Source: a virus
Lineage: Duplodnaviria; Heunggongvirae; Uroviricota; Caudoviricetes
Length of the DNA: 21,453 nt
Direction: 5' to 3' (one strand)
Virus record (IMG/VR): IMGVR_UViG_648276652_000012
The position numbers and the translations under genes were made by a program. Positions 11,000 to 17,592 of this stretch are shown one piece after another. Position 1 is the first letter of the stretch. Each line of letters begins with the position of its first letter. The notes beneath the pieces are model-generated. The model did not search any database, had not been told where the DNA came from, and saw only the letters and a list, made by a program, of their open reading frames with translations.

Positions 11000-11251
11000 T
11001 TAGTCCTGATTTTTATCCACCCTGAGTAGTTCGCGCAGAGCAAAGGCATCCCCTTTTCTGGCAAGCTTAAACAATGCCGCTCGTAACTCGGCTTCACCTT
11101 TCGCTCTGCCCTTACGGATGGCCGCATAAAAATCTGTCATTGCTTCCCGATTTTCTTTCAGTCGGTTCAGATCAACATCCAGAACGTCAGCGATTTGTTG
11201 TGCAGTCATCCGGCACGCTGCCAGAGACTCGACTTTCGAATACGGAATCAT
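11000..11251 (-). CDS. small hypothetical protein with a possible helix-turn-helix
   Basis: 83-aa ORF ending 3 nt before the small terminase start; ATG at 11251 has GGGGGTG upstream. Overlaps the 3' end of the upstream gene by 65 nt, so the start is uncertain. Confidence 0.4.
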   Translation of the reverse strand: MIPYSKVESLAACRMTAQQIADVLDVDLNRLKENREAMTDFYAAIRKGRAKGEAELRAALFKLARKGDAFALRELLRVDKNQD

Positions 11252-12119
11252 TTGTCACCCCCATTGATATGCAGGGTGTCTTCTTCCTGTATTTTTCGTG
11301 AAGGATTTTTACTGCAGCGTTGTTCCAGGTGACCTGATGGTGAATGCGTTTATGGCTGGCACCCATCAGTGAGATTTTTACGCACGACGGCGAATACATG
11401 ACGGAGTAAAAACTTTTAACGTAGGTTCCGGAATCCAGATACAGCTCGGTCATTCCGCCGCTGTTTTTCTGCGTCTGTTTCTGCCCTAACTGGACAGCAC
11501 CGATCGTCATAAACAATTCACCACAGCGACCGAGATTCGTGTACGTATTCACATCCTCGTTAATGCGCCCCATGAATGAGAACGGTCGATCAACCGAACA
11601 GATAAAGCTGTTCATTGCCTTGCGTTTCACCCACGAAGCATGGCCGCCATTGTCACCAAGAAAATCCCCGCCCTGCGACATAGCGATGGAAAGCGCGGGT
11701 ATTGATTCGTAATACGCCAGCATTTCAGAAAGGATCGCATCCAGTTTCCTTATCGGGAAATAGGCCTGGTCATAGTTGCGATCCACCCGAAACTGGAACT
11801 CGTGATAATCATCATCGAGCTGAATGAAGTATTTACACCCGACCAGTTTTGCCAGGTCGAAACAGGCATTACGGGCGTAAAAAATTGAGCGGCGATCACC
11901 AAAATTATCGGCTTCGTCAAAACGACTGGCAATATCGGCTTTGGAAAATACCAGCACCTGTTCACCAAATTCAGCCATGTACTGATGCCGTGTCTTATCT
12001 TCATCATCAACAACGATAAAAATTTTCCCGGTATAGCCAGCACGACGCAACGTCCGGTAAGTCAGAACTTTGTCCGGTCGCCCGTGAGTCAGAATAAAGG
12101 CGCAAAAATCATCACGCAT
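11187..12119 (-). CDS. GT-A-like putative nucleotide-sugar transferase (glycosyltransferase motifs)
   Basis: N-terminal FILTHGRPDKV...KIFIVVDDED resembles the GT2-type sugar-nucleotide binding signature; a downstream QLDDDYHEF resembles a DXD motif. No predicted transmembrane stretch. Start set at the ATG at 12119, preceded by GGAGGAGGAGGAGG. Motif-based call, not verified. Confidence 0.5.
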   Translation of the reverse strand: MRDDFCAFILTHGRPDKVLTYRTLRRAGYTGKIFIVVDDEDKTRHQYMAEFGEQVLVFSKADIASRFDEADNFGDRRSIFYARNACFDLAKLVGCKYFIQLDDDYHEFQFRVDRNYDQAYFPIRKLDAILSEMLAYYESIPALSIAMSQGGDFLGDNGGHASWVKRKAMNSFICSVDRPFSFMGRINEDVNTYTNLGRCGELFMTIGAVQLGQKQTQKNSGGMTELYLDSGTYVKSFYSVMYSPSCVKISLMGASHKRIHHQVTWNNAAVKILHEKYRKKTPCISMGVTNDSVFESRVSGSVPDDCTTNR

Positions 12120-12906
12120 ATTCCTCCTCCTCCTCCCCGCCATGCATGATCTCCACCATGCGCTGCGTCATTCGGACAAATCCATTTTCAATAGCCTGCT
12201 GATAATCAATGATCACCAGCGCCGACTCCTCGAAAAGGCACTGAATTTCAGCGGGGGCATGAGCGTAATAGTCCGCAATTCTGCTGAAATTAAACACTGT
12301 GTGACGTTCTGCCGCACACAGGAGGAATTTCTCAATATCAGGATCAAGGGACGCCGAACGTATCCGGCTGATCAGCTCCTGAGTTTTCGTATCGTCGTAC
12401 AGTTCACTGATATCCGGTTTACCGCCCGACGGCTCATAAACAGGCGTATCAATTTTCGTCGTATACGGCTCCTCCTCATTTCCTGTACCGGGCAAAACAT
12501 CCGTCAACAGTTCATCAATTTCTGTCGGGATGAAGCCTGTCAGGGAGACATCAAAATCAGCATTGATTAGGTCCGACAGCTCCATCCGCAACAGATCTTC
12601 ATCCCAGCCAGCATTCATCGGCAGGCGATTATCTGCCAGGCGGTACGCCTTTTTCTGCTCATCCGTCAGGCCAGACAGAACAATGACCGGAACAGAATCC
12701 ATTTTGAGCATTTCAGCCGCCATAACACGACCGTGACCCGCAATAATTTCGCCCTTTTCGTCAATCAGCACCGGATTAGTCCAGCCGAATTGCTTAATAC
12801 TTTCTACCAGTTGTGCCACCTGCTCAGGGCTGTGCGTCCTGGCGTTGTGCGCATACGGTGACAATTCTTGTAATGGGCGATAGACTATCTTTAATTTCTC
12901 GCTCAT
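12112..12906 (-). CDS. ParB-like nuclease domain (ParB/Srx N-terminal domain) protein
   Basis: N-terminal region PLQELSPYAHNARTHSPEQVAQLVESIKQFGWTNPVLIDEKGEIIAGHGRVMAA fits the ParB/sulfiredoxin-fold pattern; acidic C-terminus (GGEEEEEYA). Confidence 0.7.
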   Translation of the reverse strand: MSEKLKIVYRPLQELSPYAHNARTHSPEQVAQLVESIKQFGWTNPVLIDEKGEIIAGHGRVMAAEMLKMDSVPVIVLSGLTDEQKKAYRLADNRLPMNAGWDEDLLRMELSDLINADFDVSLTGFIPTEIDELLTDVLPGTGNEEEPYTTKIDTPVYEPSGGKPDISELYDDTKTQELISRIRSASLDPDIEKFLLCAAERHTVFNFSRIADYYAHAPAEIQCLFEESALVIIDYQQAIENGFVRMTQRMVEIMHGGEEEEEYA

Positions 12907-12920
12907 ACAGCCTTGCTTTA

Positions 12921-12958
12921 TGAATAAAACGCACCCCAGCAGCCAGTGCTACTGGGGA
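12921..12958 (-). terminator. rho-independent terminator downstream of trkG
   Basis: Minus strand reads ccccagtagcactggctgctgggg (imperfect roughly 10-bp stem) followed by tgcgttttattcat. Confidence 0.55.
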
Positions 12959-13043
12959 CGGAGGGGTTGCTGGTAAAGTTAGGTATTGGATCAATGAGTG
13001 AGTCAACATAATATTAAACTCACAATTATAAATCAGCCATATA

Positions 13044-14501
13044 TTAGGAGCGCCAAAAAAAACCTGAAAACAATATAATAACAGGATAAATTTCAAGGCG
13101 ACCAAGAATCATAGCTATGCACATTAAACATTTTGCAATGTCATTAAGCACTCCGAATGACGATGCAGTAGCCCCAAAACCTAATCCCATATTATTAATA
13201 CATGCAGCCACTGTTGCAAATGATGTAAGAAAATCATATCCCATACCATTTAACACCAGTATAAAAAACACCGTGAAGAGAGTATAAAGAAAAAAGAAAC
13301 TCCATACAGACCTCATTACACGATCTGTAACTATCTTCCCTCCTACATTTACACTCAACAACGCTCTGGGATGAGAAAGCTGATTTATCTCGTGTTTGCT
13401 TTGTTTGAAAAGTATAAGAAATCGAAGTGACTTAATTCCACCACAAGTTGAACCTATACATCCCCCAAAGAAACTTGACAACAGCAAAAACACTATCGTG
13501 TGCGTGGGCCAACTTGCATAATCCTGCGTAGCTAAACCATTATCAGTGAGCATGGAGCTGGCAAGAAAAAACGAATGAATAAAACTTCCATGCAAGTCAT
13601 ACATACCTATATGCCAGACCTGGAAAGAGGTAACAATGATCACCCCTAAGGCTATTAACAGAAAGAAACGAAGTTCAATATCTCTGATTAAAGGTTTTAT
13701 CGTTTTCCTGCTAATAACAATATACCAAAGAGTGAAGTTGAAAGCCGATAGCAGGGAAAAAGAACCAGCCACCAGCTCAACCAAATAGTTATTAAAATAT
13801 CCGATACTCTCGCTATGAGTTGAGAAACCACCAAGCGAAACTGTGGAAATCCCGTGACAAATAGCATCAAACAAAGGCATTCCTGCAAGTCTATAACAGA
13901 CAATACAAGCAATACCTAATAAAGAATAAGTTATCCACAGTGTCCGTGACGTATCGGCCAGGCGGGGAGTGAGTTTGTCATCCTTAAATGGCCCCGGCAT
14001 TTCTGACTGATAAAGCTTTGCACCACCAATACCCAATAATGGCAATACAGCAACCGCCAGAACAATAACTCCTAAACCACCTATAAAATTTAACTGTGAC
14101 CGATAGTACAAATATGCCCGAGGTAATGAACTAACATCATCAATTACAGTTGCTCCTGTTGTTGTTATTCCAGAAACCCCTTCAAACAGAGCATCAATGA
14201 ACGTTAAATTAAGTTCTGAGTCAATCCATAAAGGGAATGCACTAATAACAGAAAACAAAATCCAAAACATTACAATTATAATAAACCCATCACGGGTACG
14301 TAATTGAATGCCAGATTTCTTAGTTGTATACCACGCTCCGCCACCAATGCAAAAAAATATAACGAAAGTTATAAAGAAAACGAACAGGCTTTTTTCTTTA
14401 TAAAACAATGCTACAACCATTGGTGGCAACATTGAAAGACTATAGAGCCAAACCAGGAACCCACACATATGAGTAACAACTCTTACATGAGATGTATTCA
14501 T
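13044..14501 (-). CDS. trkG: Trk-system potassium uptake protein TrkG (TrkH/KtrB family)
   Basis: 485-aa polytopic membrane protein starting MNTSHVRVVTHMCGFLVWLYSL..., recognised from memory as E. coli TrkG. Markedly AT-rich compared with flanking phage genes. Start trimmed from the TTG at 14519 to the ATG at 14501. Confidence 0.9.
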   Translation of the reverse strand: MNTSHVRVVTHMCGFLVWLYSLSMLPPMVVALFYKEKSLFVFFITFVIFFCIGGGAWYTTKKSGIQLRTRDGFIIIVMFWILFSVISAFPLWIDSELNLTFIDALFEGVSGITTTGATVIDDVSSLPRAYLYYRSQLNFIGGLGVIVLAVAVLPLLGIGGAKLYQSEMPGPFKDDKLTPRLADTSRTLWITYSLLGIACIVCYRLAGMPLFDAICHGISTVSLGGFSTHSESIGYFNNYLVELVAGSFSLLSAFNFTLWYIVISRKTIKPLIRDIELRFFLLIALGVIIVTSFQVWHIGMYDLHGSFIHSFFLASSMLTDNGLATQDYASWPTHTIVFLLLSSFFGGCIGSTCGGIKSLRFLILFKQSKHEINQLSHPRALLSVNVGGKIVTDRVMRSVWSFFFLYTLFTVFFILVLNGMGYDFLTSFATVAACINNMGLGFGATASSFGVLNDIAKCLMCIAMILGRLEIYPVIILFSGFFWRS

Positions 14502-14638
14502 ATCTAAATATTCTTTCAATTATAACCACCTTGCTGCAATATTATGATTATACTGTATAAAATTTAACTCCTCTTAGATCTTACTTCACTGTTCCTTATG
14601 AAACAATCATCAAAATGAATCATATTGTAGTTAAGATT

Positions 14639-15103
14639 TTACTTTAAACACTGCTCGGTTATGTATTGCTGAGCACCTTCAAGTTGGGCCTGCATCATTA
14701 CCAGTCGTTCCCGGAGGGTGAAATAATCCCGTTCAGCGGTGTCTGCCAGTCGGGGGGAGGCTGCATTATCCACGCCGGAGGCGGTGGTGGCTTCACGCAC
14801 TGACTGACAGACTGCTTTGATGTGCAACCGACGACGACCAGCGGCAACATCATCACGCAGAACATCATTTTCAGCTTTCGCATCAGCTAACTCCTTCGTG
14901 TATTTTGCATCGAGCGCAGCAACATCACGCTGACGCATCTGCATGTCAGTAATTGCCGCGTTCGCCAGCTTCAGTTCTCTGGCATTTTTGTCGCGCTGTT
15001 CTTTGTAGGCGATGGCGTTATCACGGTAATGATTAACACCCCATGACAGGCAGACGACGATGCAGATAACCAGAGCGGAGATAATCGCGGTTACTCTGTT
15101 CAT
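14639..15103 (-). CDS. Rz: Rz i-spanin
   Basis: N-terminal transmembrane segment then a coiled-coil periplasmic domain; ATG at 15103 overlaps the endolysin stop (ATGA). Confidence 0.85.
14698..14883 (-). CDS. Rz1: Rz1 o-spanin, embedded out of frame inside Rz
   Basis: [20 protein letters not shown] lipoprotein signal with a lipobox cysteine, followed by a proline-rich PPPPP segment; entirely nested in Rz. Confidence 0.85.
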
Positions 15104-15597
15104 TGCTGACCCCACAAACAGATTTCACGCTCAATCTCACGACGAGTCATGAGACCTTTCCATTGCTTACCGCCAGCATATGTCCAGCGACGTAGCTGAT
15201 CACATGCGCCTTTGATATCGCCCTGGTTTATTTTGCGAAGAAGCGTCGATGTTCTGAAATTGCCAGCACCCACGTTGTAAACGAATGAGTAAAGAGCGCC
15301 GCGCGTTGTTTCCGGTATATCGACTTTGATGTACGGGTTAATTTGTCTGGCGACCGTGGCAAGGTCTTTATTCAAGAGTGTTTTGCATTCTGCTTTGGTA
15401 TACGTTTTACCGAGCATGATGTCTTTTCCTGTATGCCCGTGACATACAGTCCATACACCAACAATATCTTTGTATGGTATGTAGCTGACACCTTCCAGAC
15501 CATCGTTACCACTTGGGCCAGTGATTAACACTGATGCTATAGCAATTGCTCCGCCACCAATAGCAGCAGCAACGGCTTTTCGTAATGATGGAGGCAT
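15100..15597 (-). CDS. R: SAR endolysin (phage 21 R-type lysozyme)
   Basis: 165 aa; weakly hydrophobic Gly/Ala-rich N-terminal signal-anchor-release segment ([20 protein letters not shown]) followed by a lysozyme domain; recognised from memory as R21-like. Confidence 0.9.
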
Positions 15598-15812
15598 TAT
15601 TCACCTCTCGCAGCCTTGCGCTTATCTTCTTTAATCTTGAAATAAAGATTTGTCAGATACGTCAGCAGGCCAAATACCAGGCTACCCAGCACACCTATTG
15701 CCGCCCACTGTGAGGGCGTGACTTTATCGAGCAACTGTAAAAACCAGTATCCCGCACTACCCGCGGATGTTCCGTAGGCAATGCCAGTAGAGATTTTGTC
15801 CATTGATTTCAT
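15597..15812 (-). CDS. S: pinholin (phage 21 S-type holin) with dual-start motif
   Basis: 71 aa beginning MKSMDK (Met1 and Met4 starts), two transmembrane segments; GGAGG 7 nt upstream; stop overlaps the R start (TAATG). Confidence 0.9.
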
Positions 15813-15930
15813 AGCAACGCCTCCGCAAGTAACGGATTGCGTAGTTCTTATATTGGGAAGGGGAAAAAAGAAGGCCGCAGCGTAACTATCACTGATGAAT
15901 TCAGGACAGCCAGTGGCTCCGGCTCAGTTA

Positions 15931-16006
15931 TGGTGCTGGTTAACGGACTTGAACCGCTACCCATTCGCTTACAAGGCGACTGCTCTACCATTGGAGCTAA
16001 ACCAGC
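15931..16006 (-). tRNA. tRNA, anticodon UGU by manual fold (tRNA-Thr)
   Basis: Minus-strand 76-nt sequence GCTGGTT-TA-GCTC-CAATGGTA-GAGC-A-GTCGC-CTTGTAA-GCGAA-TGGGT-AGCGG-TTCAAGT-CCGTT-AACCAGC-A-CCA. Perfect 7-bp acceptor and 4-bp D stems, T8/A9, GG in the D-loop, TTCAAGT T-loop, encoded CCA. Anticodon assignment rests on hand folding. Confidence 0.7.
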
Positions 16007-16011
16007 ATATT

Positions 16012-16086
16012 TGGCGGGACAGCGTGGACTCGAACCACGATAAGAAGGTTAACAGCCTTCCGTAATGACCTTTATGCGACTGACCC
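16012..16086 (-). other. degenerate tRNA-like element (possible pseudo-tRNA or unusual tRNA, anticodon GUU if folded)
   Basis: Good T-arm (CGTGG-TTCGAGT-CCACG), perfect anticodon stem (GAAGG/CCTTC, loop CTGTTAA), 3' CCA; but a T-T mismatch in the acceptor stem and a poor D stem. Confidence 0.3.
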
Positions 16087-16087
16087 A

Positions 16088-16125
16088 AACAAAAAAAGCC
16101 ACCGTTGCAACTTAAGAGTCACTAA
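16088..16125 (-). terminator. putative tR'-like terminator downstream of the late promoter
   Basis: Minus strand reads gccgtt...gttgcaacggtggc followed by ttttttt gtttggg; the stem is imperfect but the 7-T run is clear. Confidence 0.4.
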
Positions 16126-16142
16126 CGGCAGCTTACCTTCTA

Positions 16143-16172
16143 ATTATGGCTAAATGGATAATTGCATGTCAA
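16143..16172 (-). promoter_or_regulatory. candidate late promoter pR' (sigma-70; consensus -35, 18-nt spacer, near-consensus -10) overlapping the Q 3' end
   Basis: Minus strand: TTGACA (plus 16167-16172) - 18 nt - CATAAT (plus 16143-16148). The Q stop codon lies between them; the T-run terminator follows about 45 nt downstream. Confidence 0.6.
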
Positions 16173-16668
16173 GGCTTTTAACAGCAACATGCTTAACTTT
16201 CTCAACACGTTTACGCATTTTGAAAGCATTTTGCATTGGCTGGTACAAAACAAATAACGACGCTTTCAGGATGTCGTCAATTTCGTTTCTACAGGTTGCC
16301 AGTGAAGGTTTTCTCCATCCCTCGCCACCACGTCCACACATCTTGCGTGGCTTTGCAGTCGCGTGATAGTAGGATGCAATTGCTCGCTTAGATGAACCAT
16401 GAGCGTAGTAGCTGAGGAGGATGCCAAAGGCTTTTTTGTCAATGCACATGACGGAATCGACGACCTGAGAAATCAACATTCCATCATCATCATTACACAT
16501 TGGCCTTGTCATAACTCTTCCCGGCTCTACGCTCTCCATGAACTTAGCTATTACGCTGCTCATGCGCTTTTCCAGACGACCTGAATAAACCCATGCGCCC
16601 CACAGTTCAAGCCAGCCATTCAGCCACTCGTGCTGTTCTTTGGTGAGGTTTAGTTCTCTTATGCCCAT
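16150..16668 (-). CDS. Q: late antiterminator Q (phage 21/82-type)
   Basis: Motifs ELWGAW, CNDDDGM and LLSYYAHG recalled from Q-family proteins; sits between ninG and the lysis genes. Start set at the ATG at 16668 (GGGAGAAGG upstream) rather than the GTG at 16725, which overlaps ninG. Confidence 0.8.
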   Translation of the reverse strand: MGIRELNLTKEQHEWLNGWLELWGAWVYSGRLEKRMSSVIAKFMESVEPGRVMTRPMCNDDDGMLISQVVDSVMCIDKKAFGILLSYYAHGSSKRAIASYYHATAKPRKMCGRGGEGWRKPSLATCRNEIDDILKASLFVLYQPMQNAFKMRKRVEKVKHVAVKSLDMQLSI

Positions 16669-16711
16669 GCGCCTTCTCCCTTGTGATCTGGAATGGTTTT
16701 TACTGAGAACG

Positions 16712-17323
16712 TCATGCGGCCTCACTTCTGCTGTTTCGCAGGTCTTTGAGTTTCTGCTGATACTCCGCCTTGATGGCCCTGCACTCTTCGACAGTCCAGC
16801 GATGGCGGTTATGGTTTGATTCGATTTCGTCTACTGCTTCCTGCCCGATGCGGCTAATCAGTTCGACGCGATACGGAACGAGATTTCCGCTTTTGTGCTG
16901 GTTGCACACCACGCATTGCTTGTGAATATTGCGTTCATCAAATCGGAGTTGAGGTGCCGCAGCAGTTGTCCGGTAATGTCCGGCATCCCACTGAGCAGAC
17001 GTGAGCGTTCCGCACGAGATACATGGTAAGTCGCGGTCTCTTTCTCTGATGAAGGCGTTTACGGCTTGTTGGGCTTGTTTAATCCAGTAACTGCGGGGCT
17101 TTAAGGCGAGTTTTCGAATCTTAAGTTTATCTTTCTGTTTCTGCTCCTCTCGTCGTCGTTTCTTCTCTGCTGCTTTTTCCGCTTTTTCGCGTTCTTTACT
17201 TCGTCGTTCGAGTGCTATCTTGGTTCCACACTCTGGAGAGCACCACCACTGATTAGCGAATGCAGGATGAAACCATTCCCGACATTCTTCGTTTTTACAT
17301 CGTCTTCGCGCTTGTTTAGCCAT
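16712..17323 (-). CDS. ninG: NinG (Rap) recombination-associated protein
   Basis: 203 aa, [33 protein letters not shown]..., recognised from memory as nearly identical to lambda NinG. Confidence 0.9.
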
Positions 17324-17592
17324 TATGGTTCGCTCCAGTAATTCTCAATTGCAGCAGCCATTCTCTGCATCCACTCAGCCAGCTTTAACGCGGCTTCTCT
17401 TTCAGAACCACATTTAGGGAAATCCTTCATTTCCATGCTGGCCTTATATGTTCTGAATGCTAGGTCTCCGGTAATAACCAGCTCCTGATCAAGCACCGAG
17501 CGTTTATTCCGGTGTTGAACGTAATAGACAGATTCAGTCCGCATTTCTTCTCTGTCTTTTTTGAAGGAAATAAGCTCAGAGAAATCACTCAT
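17323..17592 (-). CDS. hypothetical nin-region protein (89 aa)
   Basis: ORF translationally coupled on both sides: its ATG overlaps the ninF 3' end and its TAA overlaps the ninG ATG (TAATG). Not present in lambda at this position as far as I recall. Confidence 0.55.

Follow-up and report, generated by a model that had tools for sequence, protein, structure and literature searches.

[quoted passage not shown] We consider it highly probable that this phage 21-type pair is expressed mainly in dependence on the antiterminator Q and that its Thr tRNA would replace the host tRNA encoded by thrU; its Asn tRNA may act as a partner under the same logic. The evidence comes from the window, by which we mean the whole 21,453-nucleotide stretch of IMG/VR record IMGVR_UViG_648276652_000012, and from related loci in phages and bacterial genomes.

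Two tRNA Genes Follow the Late Terminator

ARAGORN finds two tRNA genes in the whole 21.4-kb window, both of them on the minus strand. The genes and their neighbors, in order of transcription, are:

16150..16668, minus strand: Q antiterminator gene (phage 21/Sf6-type), 172 amino acids from ATG (MGIRELNL...), from open reading frame and homology
16143..16172, minus strand: pR' late promoter, TTGACA-18 nt-CATAAT, 11/12 in a consensus scan, overlapping the end of Q
16089..16134, minus strand: tR' intrinsic terminator, with hairpin 16134..16096 and U7 tract 16095..16089
16086..16012, minus strand: tRNA-Asn(GUU), 75 nt, CCA encoded, discriminator G73, from ARAGORN, Rfam and covariation
16007..16011, minus strand: inter-tRNA spacer AAUAU, 5 nt
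16006..15931, minus strand: tRNA-Thr(UGU), 76 nt, CCA encoded, discriminator A73, from ARAGORN and Rfam
15864..15923, minus strand: long hairpin 15923..15874 followed by U-rich run 15873..15864, from folding, between tRNA-Thr and the holin gene
15597..15812, minus strand: S21-type pinholin/antiholin gene, 71-amino-acid open reading frame, first downstream late protein gene

Transcription thus runs through Q, pR', tR', tRNA-Asn, 5 nt, tRNA-Thr, a 118-nt spacer and the S21 pinholin gene, after which come the SAR endolysin and Rz/Rz1 genes. The Q region shares approximately 98% nucleotide identity with Sf6 gene 59 and approximately 89% with phage 21, and its counterpart in E. coli CP53 is annotated as an "antiterminator Q family protein". 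The promoter lines up with the late promoters annotated in Sf6 and phage 21, the tR' sequence is identical to the annotated late terminators of phage 21 and Sf6, and the S21-type reading frame matches the phage 21 S21-71/68 annotation. The tR' fold has a predicted energy of −20.2 kcal/mol (z = −4.28), and none of 200 shuffled sequences is equally stable.

Both tRNAs also score well above the gathering score of 29 bits for Rfam family RF00005, at 61.5 bits (E = 2.3e-11) for tRNA-Thr and 47.3 bits (E = 1.8e-7) for tRNA-Asn, and therefore neither is a chance match. The tRNA-Asn gene starts 2 nt past the U-tract of tR'. This proximity is typical of the family to which it belongs, as 204 of 248 Asn-family members lie no more than 20 nt after a run of at least five T residues.

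A preliminary description of this DNA had proposed tRNA cargo in a lambdoid late leader, between Q/pR'/tR' and the holin gene, and the location of pR', tR' and the S21 gene bears this out. It had also folded by hand a first, 76-nt tRNA with anticodon UGU and had placed a second element 5 nt away. ARAGORN accepts both elements and reports the first at 15931-16006 with the same anticodon, and the gap falls at 16007-16011. The order given there must be reversed, because on the minus strand tRNA-Asn is transcribed first and tRNA-Thr second. Within the interval that had been assigned to the pair (15931-16125), the tRNAs occupy 15931-16086, whereas 16087-16125 hold the U-tract of tR' and the 3' half of its hairpin. 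The first element had further been called canonical; it is a real tRNA, but its anticodon stem is shortened by a G27·A43 mismatch and position 14 is C where A is usual.

Because the tRNA genes lie behind tR', they should be transcribed mainly when Q makes RNA polymerase terminator-resistant. Their position suggests that they are expressed mainly with the late mRNA, by the Q-modified polymerase. RNase P and 3' trimming would then release both tRNAs, whose CCA ends are encoded in the genome.

The 118-nt spacer 3' of tRNA-Thr has a predicted folding energy of −37.8 kcal/mol (z = −3.06). Here, at 15864-15923 on the minus strand and before the holin start, the long hairpin is followed by CUUCUUUUUU. 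The 5' part of the hairpin is kept in phage 21, Sf6, HK446 and prophages in which an alternative insert occupies the tRNA slot. As judged from its sequence, the hairpin with its U-run is possibly a second terminator-like element that brackets or closes the slot. If it is a terminator, polymerases that read through tR' without Q would give a short, tRNA-only transcript.

A Known Cassette in a Mosaic Prophage

A 1.2-kb region of the window matches phage 21 (89%), SfI and Sf6 (98%, over Q and the tRNAs) and many P22-like Salmonella phages. Both tRNA genes carry annotations in the records of phage 21, Sf6, SfI and BTP1 and in hundreds of prophages of E. coli, and tandem Asn(GUU) and Thr(UGU) genes downstream of Q have been described in SfI, Sf6, ST64T, PS3 and phage 21 (PMC3636060). 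Among 5426 complete E. coli genomes, the Thr gene is present in 345 (215 records are identical to the window) and the Asn gene in 367. The window tRNA-Thr is identical at 76 of 76 positions to the "tRNA-Thr21" of phage 21 and to the Sf6 and HK446 copies, and tRNA-Asn is identical at 74 of 75 positions to the copies of phage 21, Sf6, ST64T and HK446.

Phage 21 (OL657228, CPT_21_64/65), Sf6 (AF547987), SfI (JX509734), BTP1 and HK446 thus carry the same tRNA pair. Phage 21 shares with the window the order of Q, pR', tR', Asn, 5 nt, Thr and lysis genes as well as an identical terminator, and differs by one substitution in the Asn gene (U11→C in the window) and one in the spacer. The spacer reads AACAT (60) or AATAT (52) in relatives. 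In HK446 (NC_019714.1, 2098-2253), both tRNAs directly follow that phage's own lambda-type Q/pR'/tR' and not a 21-type module, which indicates that the cassette moves between late-control modules. HK446 has been described as encoding a single tRNA, Thr(UGU) (10.64898/2026.07.10.737580), and its GenBank record annotates neither tRNA in 2098-2253; ARAGORN finds Asn beside Thr.

Compared with phage 21, the window holds the cassette in a mosaic prophage with trkG between the lysis and head genes. The trkG-like potassium transporter gene occupies 13044-14519 on the minus strand, with ynaK-like genes upstream at 11187-12906 on the plus strand. Both are situated between the lysis cassette and the terminase/head genes, an arrangement also found in the Rac prophage. 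The collection contains no complete E. coli genome that combines this trkG-like/ynaK-like block with the Q21-type tRNA cassette, and none that covers at least 80% of window positions 12500-17500. A prophage of E. coli CP53 (NZ_CP033096.1) is identical to the window only over the 341-bp cassette and differs downstream. This CP53 prophage, which has the same C11 allele of the Asn gene, is lambda-like and encodes Gam, a known trigger of P2-OLD; its cro gene is interrupted by IS5. The possibility that the tRNAs compensate for use of an integration site was considered and rejected, since they lie in the late leader and not at an att site, with the integrase of the CP53 relative 15 kb away.

In Stx phages of the 933W type, the tRNA genes ileZ-argN-argO lie between Q and stx, and the classic explanation for their presence is rare-codon supply. 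Schmidt and colleagues are said to have described ileX near the Stx2 operon in 1997 (cited in PMC3636060). These phages resemble the window in that tRNA genes ride in the lambdoid late leader behind Q and differ in having other tRNAs and anticodons.

The Asn Element Is a Structurally Maintained tRNA

The preliminary description had seen in the second element intact T and anticodon arms, a defective D stem and an acceptor mismatch, and had suggested that it may be a degenerate, decaying tRNA. The structural details are accurate. The acceptor stem has a U4·U69 mismatch (16083/16019), the D stem has two mismatches, C11·A24 and U13·U22, and the anticodon and T arms are intact. Decay is contradicted at the level of the family, where the element is an annotated tRNA-Asn with compensatory changes, and keeps some force for this copy, which has the rare U11→C substitution.

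The identity set of E. coli AsnRS consists of anticodon nucleotides G34, U35 and U36 together with discriminator G73. The window element presents its GUU anticodon within a CUGUUAA loop and has G73 followed by an encoded CCA, and by these identity elements it is an E. coli-type tRNA-Asn. It also retains the full set of U8, A14, G18G19, U33, a purine at position 37, the T-loop UUC, C61-G53 and the 3' CCA.

Comparison with relatives reveals structural constraint. In an alignment of 21 distinct family sequences, 93.9% of the cells of the cloverleaf are paired, as opposed to 34-53% in slid controls. The covariation score is 0.403, compared to at most 0.12 in slid controls, and 0 of 500 shuffles reach this value. 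Eight pairs have changed on both sides, and RNAalifold agrees. The clades recovered (phage 21-type, Klebsiella type, RCIP0098 type, and Mixta and Pantoea variants) differ from each other in the acceptor, D, anticodon and T stems, whereas all of them share the GUU anticodon loop, G73 and CCA without variation. At the family level, the Asn element is a structurally maintained tRNA and not a relic.

The three mismatches differ in their distribution. The 4:69 pair was scanned with searches anchored on the anticodon arm (leaving the acceptor free), with searches anchored on the 3' end (leaving U4 free), and in species-representative genomes (leaving both sides free). Among 248 loci it is U·U in 242, U·G in 4 and U·C in 2, such that U4 is invariant opposite U, G or C69. 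Position 4:69 is non-Watson-Crick in every clade, and the acceptor mismatch is a conserved family trait. The U13·U22 mismatch is a clade trait, with C13-G22 in its place in the RCIP0098-type clade. Only C11·A24, which results from U11→C at 16076 where the consensus has U11-A24, is private to the window copy, and it accounts for the sole broken 11:24 cell in the 21-sequence alignment.

This private change is the basis for an alternative in which the Asn tRNA of this prophage is inactivated or decaying, with U11→C blocking its folding, processing or charging and Thr alone being functional. The C11·A24 mismatch leaves two non-adjacent Watson-Crick pairs in the D stem, and the substitution lowers the Rfam score from 55.3 bits for the consensus U11 allele to 47.3 bits and abolishes the cloverleaf as the minimum-free-energy fold. 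The C11 allele is rare, with 2 occurrences among 373 E. coli records and 1 among 120 viral contigs, and one of the two E. coli records is the prophage with the IS5-interrupted cro. Moreover, the degenerated neighboring slot of phage ST64T demonstrates that decay does happen in this cassette. On the other hand, only one transition separates the two alleles, and the resulting C·A can pair in a wobble-like manner and is what one would expect midway between the U-A and C-G pairs of sister clades. The C11 allele remains 18 bits above the Rfam threshold and is still called by ARAGORN, and its identity elements and tertiary-interaction nucleotides are all intact. The loss of the predicted cloverleaf is not decisive, because minimum-free-energy folding fails for genuine host tRNAs also; asnT and thrU of the host misfold without giving a cloverleaf, and we dropped this fold as a test of well-formedness.

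Taken with these observations, inactivation of the window Asn tRNA seems unlikely. The U11→C change is possibly mildly deleterious, which would amount to a mild degeneration specific to this copy. With the family under structural constraint and the anticodon loop, G73 and CCA intact, a single private mismatch is not enough to call the window Asn gene a pseudogene.

In ST64T (AY052766), it is the second slot at 787-855, and not the Asn gene, that is aberrant; the slot holds a tRNA-like sequence whose anticodon arm comprises a 5-bp stem and a 4-nt loop. ARAGORN rejects this sequence, which has an Rfam score of 42.1 bits. The Asn gene of ST64T is the intact consensus allele.

A second alternative is that the Asn element acts mainly as a structured RNA, either as RNase P/RNase E punctuation that detaches the terminator leader and stabilizes the late mRNA, or as a decoy that would soak up a toxin targeting tRNAs. 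Such a role would suit its position, since the Asn family heads the array in 226 of 228 loci (a Phe(GAA) gene is upstream in the other 2), as well as the invariant U4 with a 4:69 pair that is never Watson-Crick in any clade. The same slot holds a non-tRNA, tRNA-like RNA of approximately 200 nt in other prophages, and competition or decoy action of viral tRNAs has been raised as a possibility (PMC12409363). However, strict retention of the GUU loop, G73 and CCA across otherwise divergent clades is what decoding would require and exceeds the demands on a processing signal, and experiments with the Thr tRNA show replacement and not decoy action (PMC12445682; 10.64898/2026.07.10.737580). We therefore regard a mainly structural role as very improbable.

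The RNA of approximately 200 nt corresponds to an unannotated insert that replaces the Asn and Thr pair in E. coli E308 (NZ_CP030281.1, approx. 1439524-1439735) and 98218, where its flanks, the tR' terminator on one side and the downstream sequence on the other, are those of the tRNA pair. Its predicted fold (z = −2.65) consists of a 5' hairpin and a tRNA-like body, the latter made up of an acceptor stem, a D arm, an anticodon arm that is long and irregular, an additional arm and a fully paired T arm (GCCGG-UUCGAUU-CCGGC); the 3' end reads ACCC. In both strains the insert yields no ARAGORN tRNA and no Rfam family, with a weak tmRNA-like match of 20.2 bits (gathering score 47).

The Thr Element Matches an OLD-Resistant tRNA

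The function of this tRNA-Thr has been established for other phages. In lambda-infected cells, the P2-OLD nuclease is lethal because it cleaves host tRNA-Thr(UGU) at paired CNG motifs in the anticodon stem (PMC12445682). The tRNA-Thr21 of phage 21 protects against P2-OLD and resists cleavage owing to C28U/G42A and a shorter stem (Govande et al. 2025, PMC12445682), and in tRNA-ThrU both loss of the CNG and shortening of the stem are required for resistance (PMC12445682). Likewise, the Thr(UGU) tRNA of HK446 restores plating on OLD+ cells (Derzhaev et al. 2026 preprint, 10.64898/2026.07.10.737580). Overexpression of host thrU does not rescue from OLD, whereas the phage Thr tRNA does (PMC12445682; 10.64898/2026.07.10.737580). 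OLD is one of several nucleases with this substrate, as PARIS-AriB also has Thr(UGU) as a prime target (PMC12409363) and for HepS it is a secondary one (PMC13043305).

The anticodon stem of the window tRNA-Thr is GUCGC/GCGAA, in which the G27·A43 mismatch shortens the stem and no CNG motif is present. Apart from position 14, the other conserved tertiary and loop nucleotides are present, as is the CCA. When compared to the GenBank record of phage 21 and to the published description (C28U/G42A, shorter stem), tRNA-Thr21 does not differ in sequence from the window Thr, and neither does the Thr of HK446; all have C28U/G42A, no CNG and G27·A43. The window tRNA therefore has both of the features associated with OLD resistance, namely loss of the paired CNG (nt 28-30 and 40-42) and an unpaired G27·A43. 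With one pair fewer in its anticodon stem and no paired CNG at which to be cut, it is predicted to resist P2-OLD.

On the strength of this identity, we infer that the window Thr is the same OLD-resistant tRNA and would function in this prophage as it does elsewhere. It would stand in for host tRNA-Thr(UGU), the product of thrU, when the latter is destroyed by abortive-infection tRNases. Covariation is uninformative for the Thr gene, because the copies, which were gathered only beside a family Asn, are nearly invariant.

Codon Supply Might Contribute

The cassette might instead only top up tRNAs for codons that are overused in the AT-richer late genes, with no nuclease evasion. A comparison of codon usage between the late genes and the host, which the preliminary description had proposed as a check, does reveal a bias. 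The codon ACA occurs 13.6 times per 1000 codons in the late genes of the window, where it makes up 24% of Thr codons, versus 7.1 in the host; in SfI the value is 17.3, and codon supply was proposed for that phage (PMC3636060). The partner tRNAs Arg(UCU) and Gly(UCC) in related arrays also read classic rare codons. The Thr tRNA would thus serve the ACA-rich late genes in addition.

Host tRNA-Asn is multi-copy and abundant. Asn codons are only mildly enriched in the late genes of the window, at 45 per 1000, and no Asn bias appears in the earlier study (PMC3636060). Furthermore, extra host thrU fails against OLD and phage Thr succeeds, so that sequence differences matter and not dose alone, which counts against an explanation by codons only. 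Codon supply and nuclease evasion are not mutually exclusive. As the sole function of the cassette, however, codon supply is rather unlikely in our estimation.

Might the Asn tRNA Also Evade Nucleases?

The significance of the Asn tRNA "is not clear" (PMC3636060). We found no paper that tests the Asn tRNA of a lambdoid phage, the phage 21 and HK446 work having tested the Thr member only. By its sequence and position, the Asn tRNA may be a functional partner of Thr that follows the same replacement logic. [quoted passage not shown]

With regard to OLD, the anticodon stem of host asnT (GCGGA/UCCGU) bears CGG/CCG, whereas that of the phage Asn (GAAGG/CCUUC) has no CNG. The phage stem has its full 5 bp with CNG lost from both strands, while resistance of tRNA-ThrU to OLD required shortening as well. 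The missing CNG is weak evidence of selection, because lacking a CNG is the default for a random stem. Paired CNG motifs are kept in Klebsiella-clade Asn (GCAGG/CCUGC), in 30 partner Thr (GCAGC/GCUGC) and in Gly(UCC) partners. A paired-CNG (OLD) rule for the whole cassette family was therefore rejected, given that Klebsiella-clade Asn, one Thr type and Gly(UCC) keep the motif.

For AriB, the published rule involves substitutions in the site U36-A-A-U39-C40|A41, where the bar marks the cut, and at U16 (Belukhina et al. 2025, PMC12409363). The phage Thr has G39, G41 and A16 where host thrU has U39, A41 and U16, and the phage Asn has C39, U41 and A16 where host asnT has U39, C41 and U16. Judged by this rule, both phage tRNAs carry the substitutions published for AriB resistance and may resist the nuclease, although AriB recognition also has further distal determinants (PMC12409363).

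Phage T5 provides a precedent, as its tRNA-Lys, tRNA-Thr and tRNA-Asn variants neutralize PARIS (Burman et al. 2024, PMC11464382; Belukhina et al. 2025, PMC12409363). The window resembles T5 in that Thr UGU and Asn GUU are two of the three tRNAs needed and in having substitutions at positions 39 and 41, beside the site that AriB cuts, and at position 16 of the D-loop. In contrast, the window tRNAs are not sequence-homologous to those of T5, and there is no tRNA-Lys(UUU), which corresponds to the main target of AriB. The window phage is also temperate, with expression that would depend on Q, unlike T5. To our knowledge, no lambdoid phage is a PARIS trigger.

The contents of the slot vary among relatives. 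Among 228 loci, 123 arrays are Asn-Thr, 30 are Asn alone, 30 are Asn-Arg(UCU) and 11 are Asn-Phe-Thr-Arg; further arrays combine Asn with Gly(UCC) and Met(CAU), and Thr is found somewhere in 152 of the 228. The tRNAs that OLD depletes most include Thr(UGU), Gly(UCC) and fMet(CAU) (10.64898/2026.07.10.737580). This overlap fails to discriminate between nuclease evasion and codon supply, because Arg(UCU), Gly(UCC) and Thr(UGU) are classic rare-codon readers.

Expanded post-Q arrays, nearly always headed by Asn(GUU), occur in lambdoid phages of Klebsiella, Enterobacter and Citrobacter. Examples are Asn-Phe-Thr-Arg(UCU), with or without a following Gly(UCC), Asn-Arg(UCU), Asn-Gly(UCC)-Thr and Asn-Met(CAU), and the carriers include Klebsiella phages ST101-KPC2phi6.1 and RCIP0098 as well as IMG/VR loci.

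We tentatively suggest, while considering it somewhat doubtful, that the Asn tRNA resists nucleases and serves specifically to replace host tRNA-Asn. Its U4 and the non-Watson-Crick 4:69 pair might perhaps serve as an anti-determinant or as a processing signal. The slot behind tR' would then be a modular "anti-tRNase tRNA cassette", in which Asn is combined with Thr(UGU), Gly(UCC), Arg(UCU), Phe or Met and which partly mirrors the targets of OLD-family nucleases.

The window provides another copy of a known counter-defense tRNA-Thr. Its Asn partner is as widespread as Thr, is structurally constrained with a conserved acceptor mismatch, and has the anticodon of a secondary target of two Toprim tRNases. 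The function of this Asn tRNA bears on whether temperate phages, like T5, carry multi-tRNA counter-defense sets.
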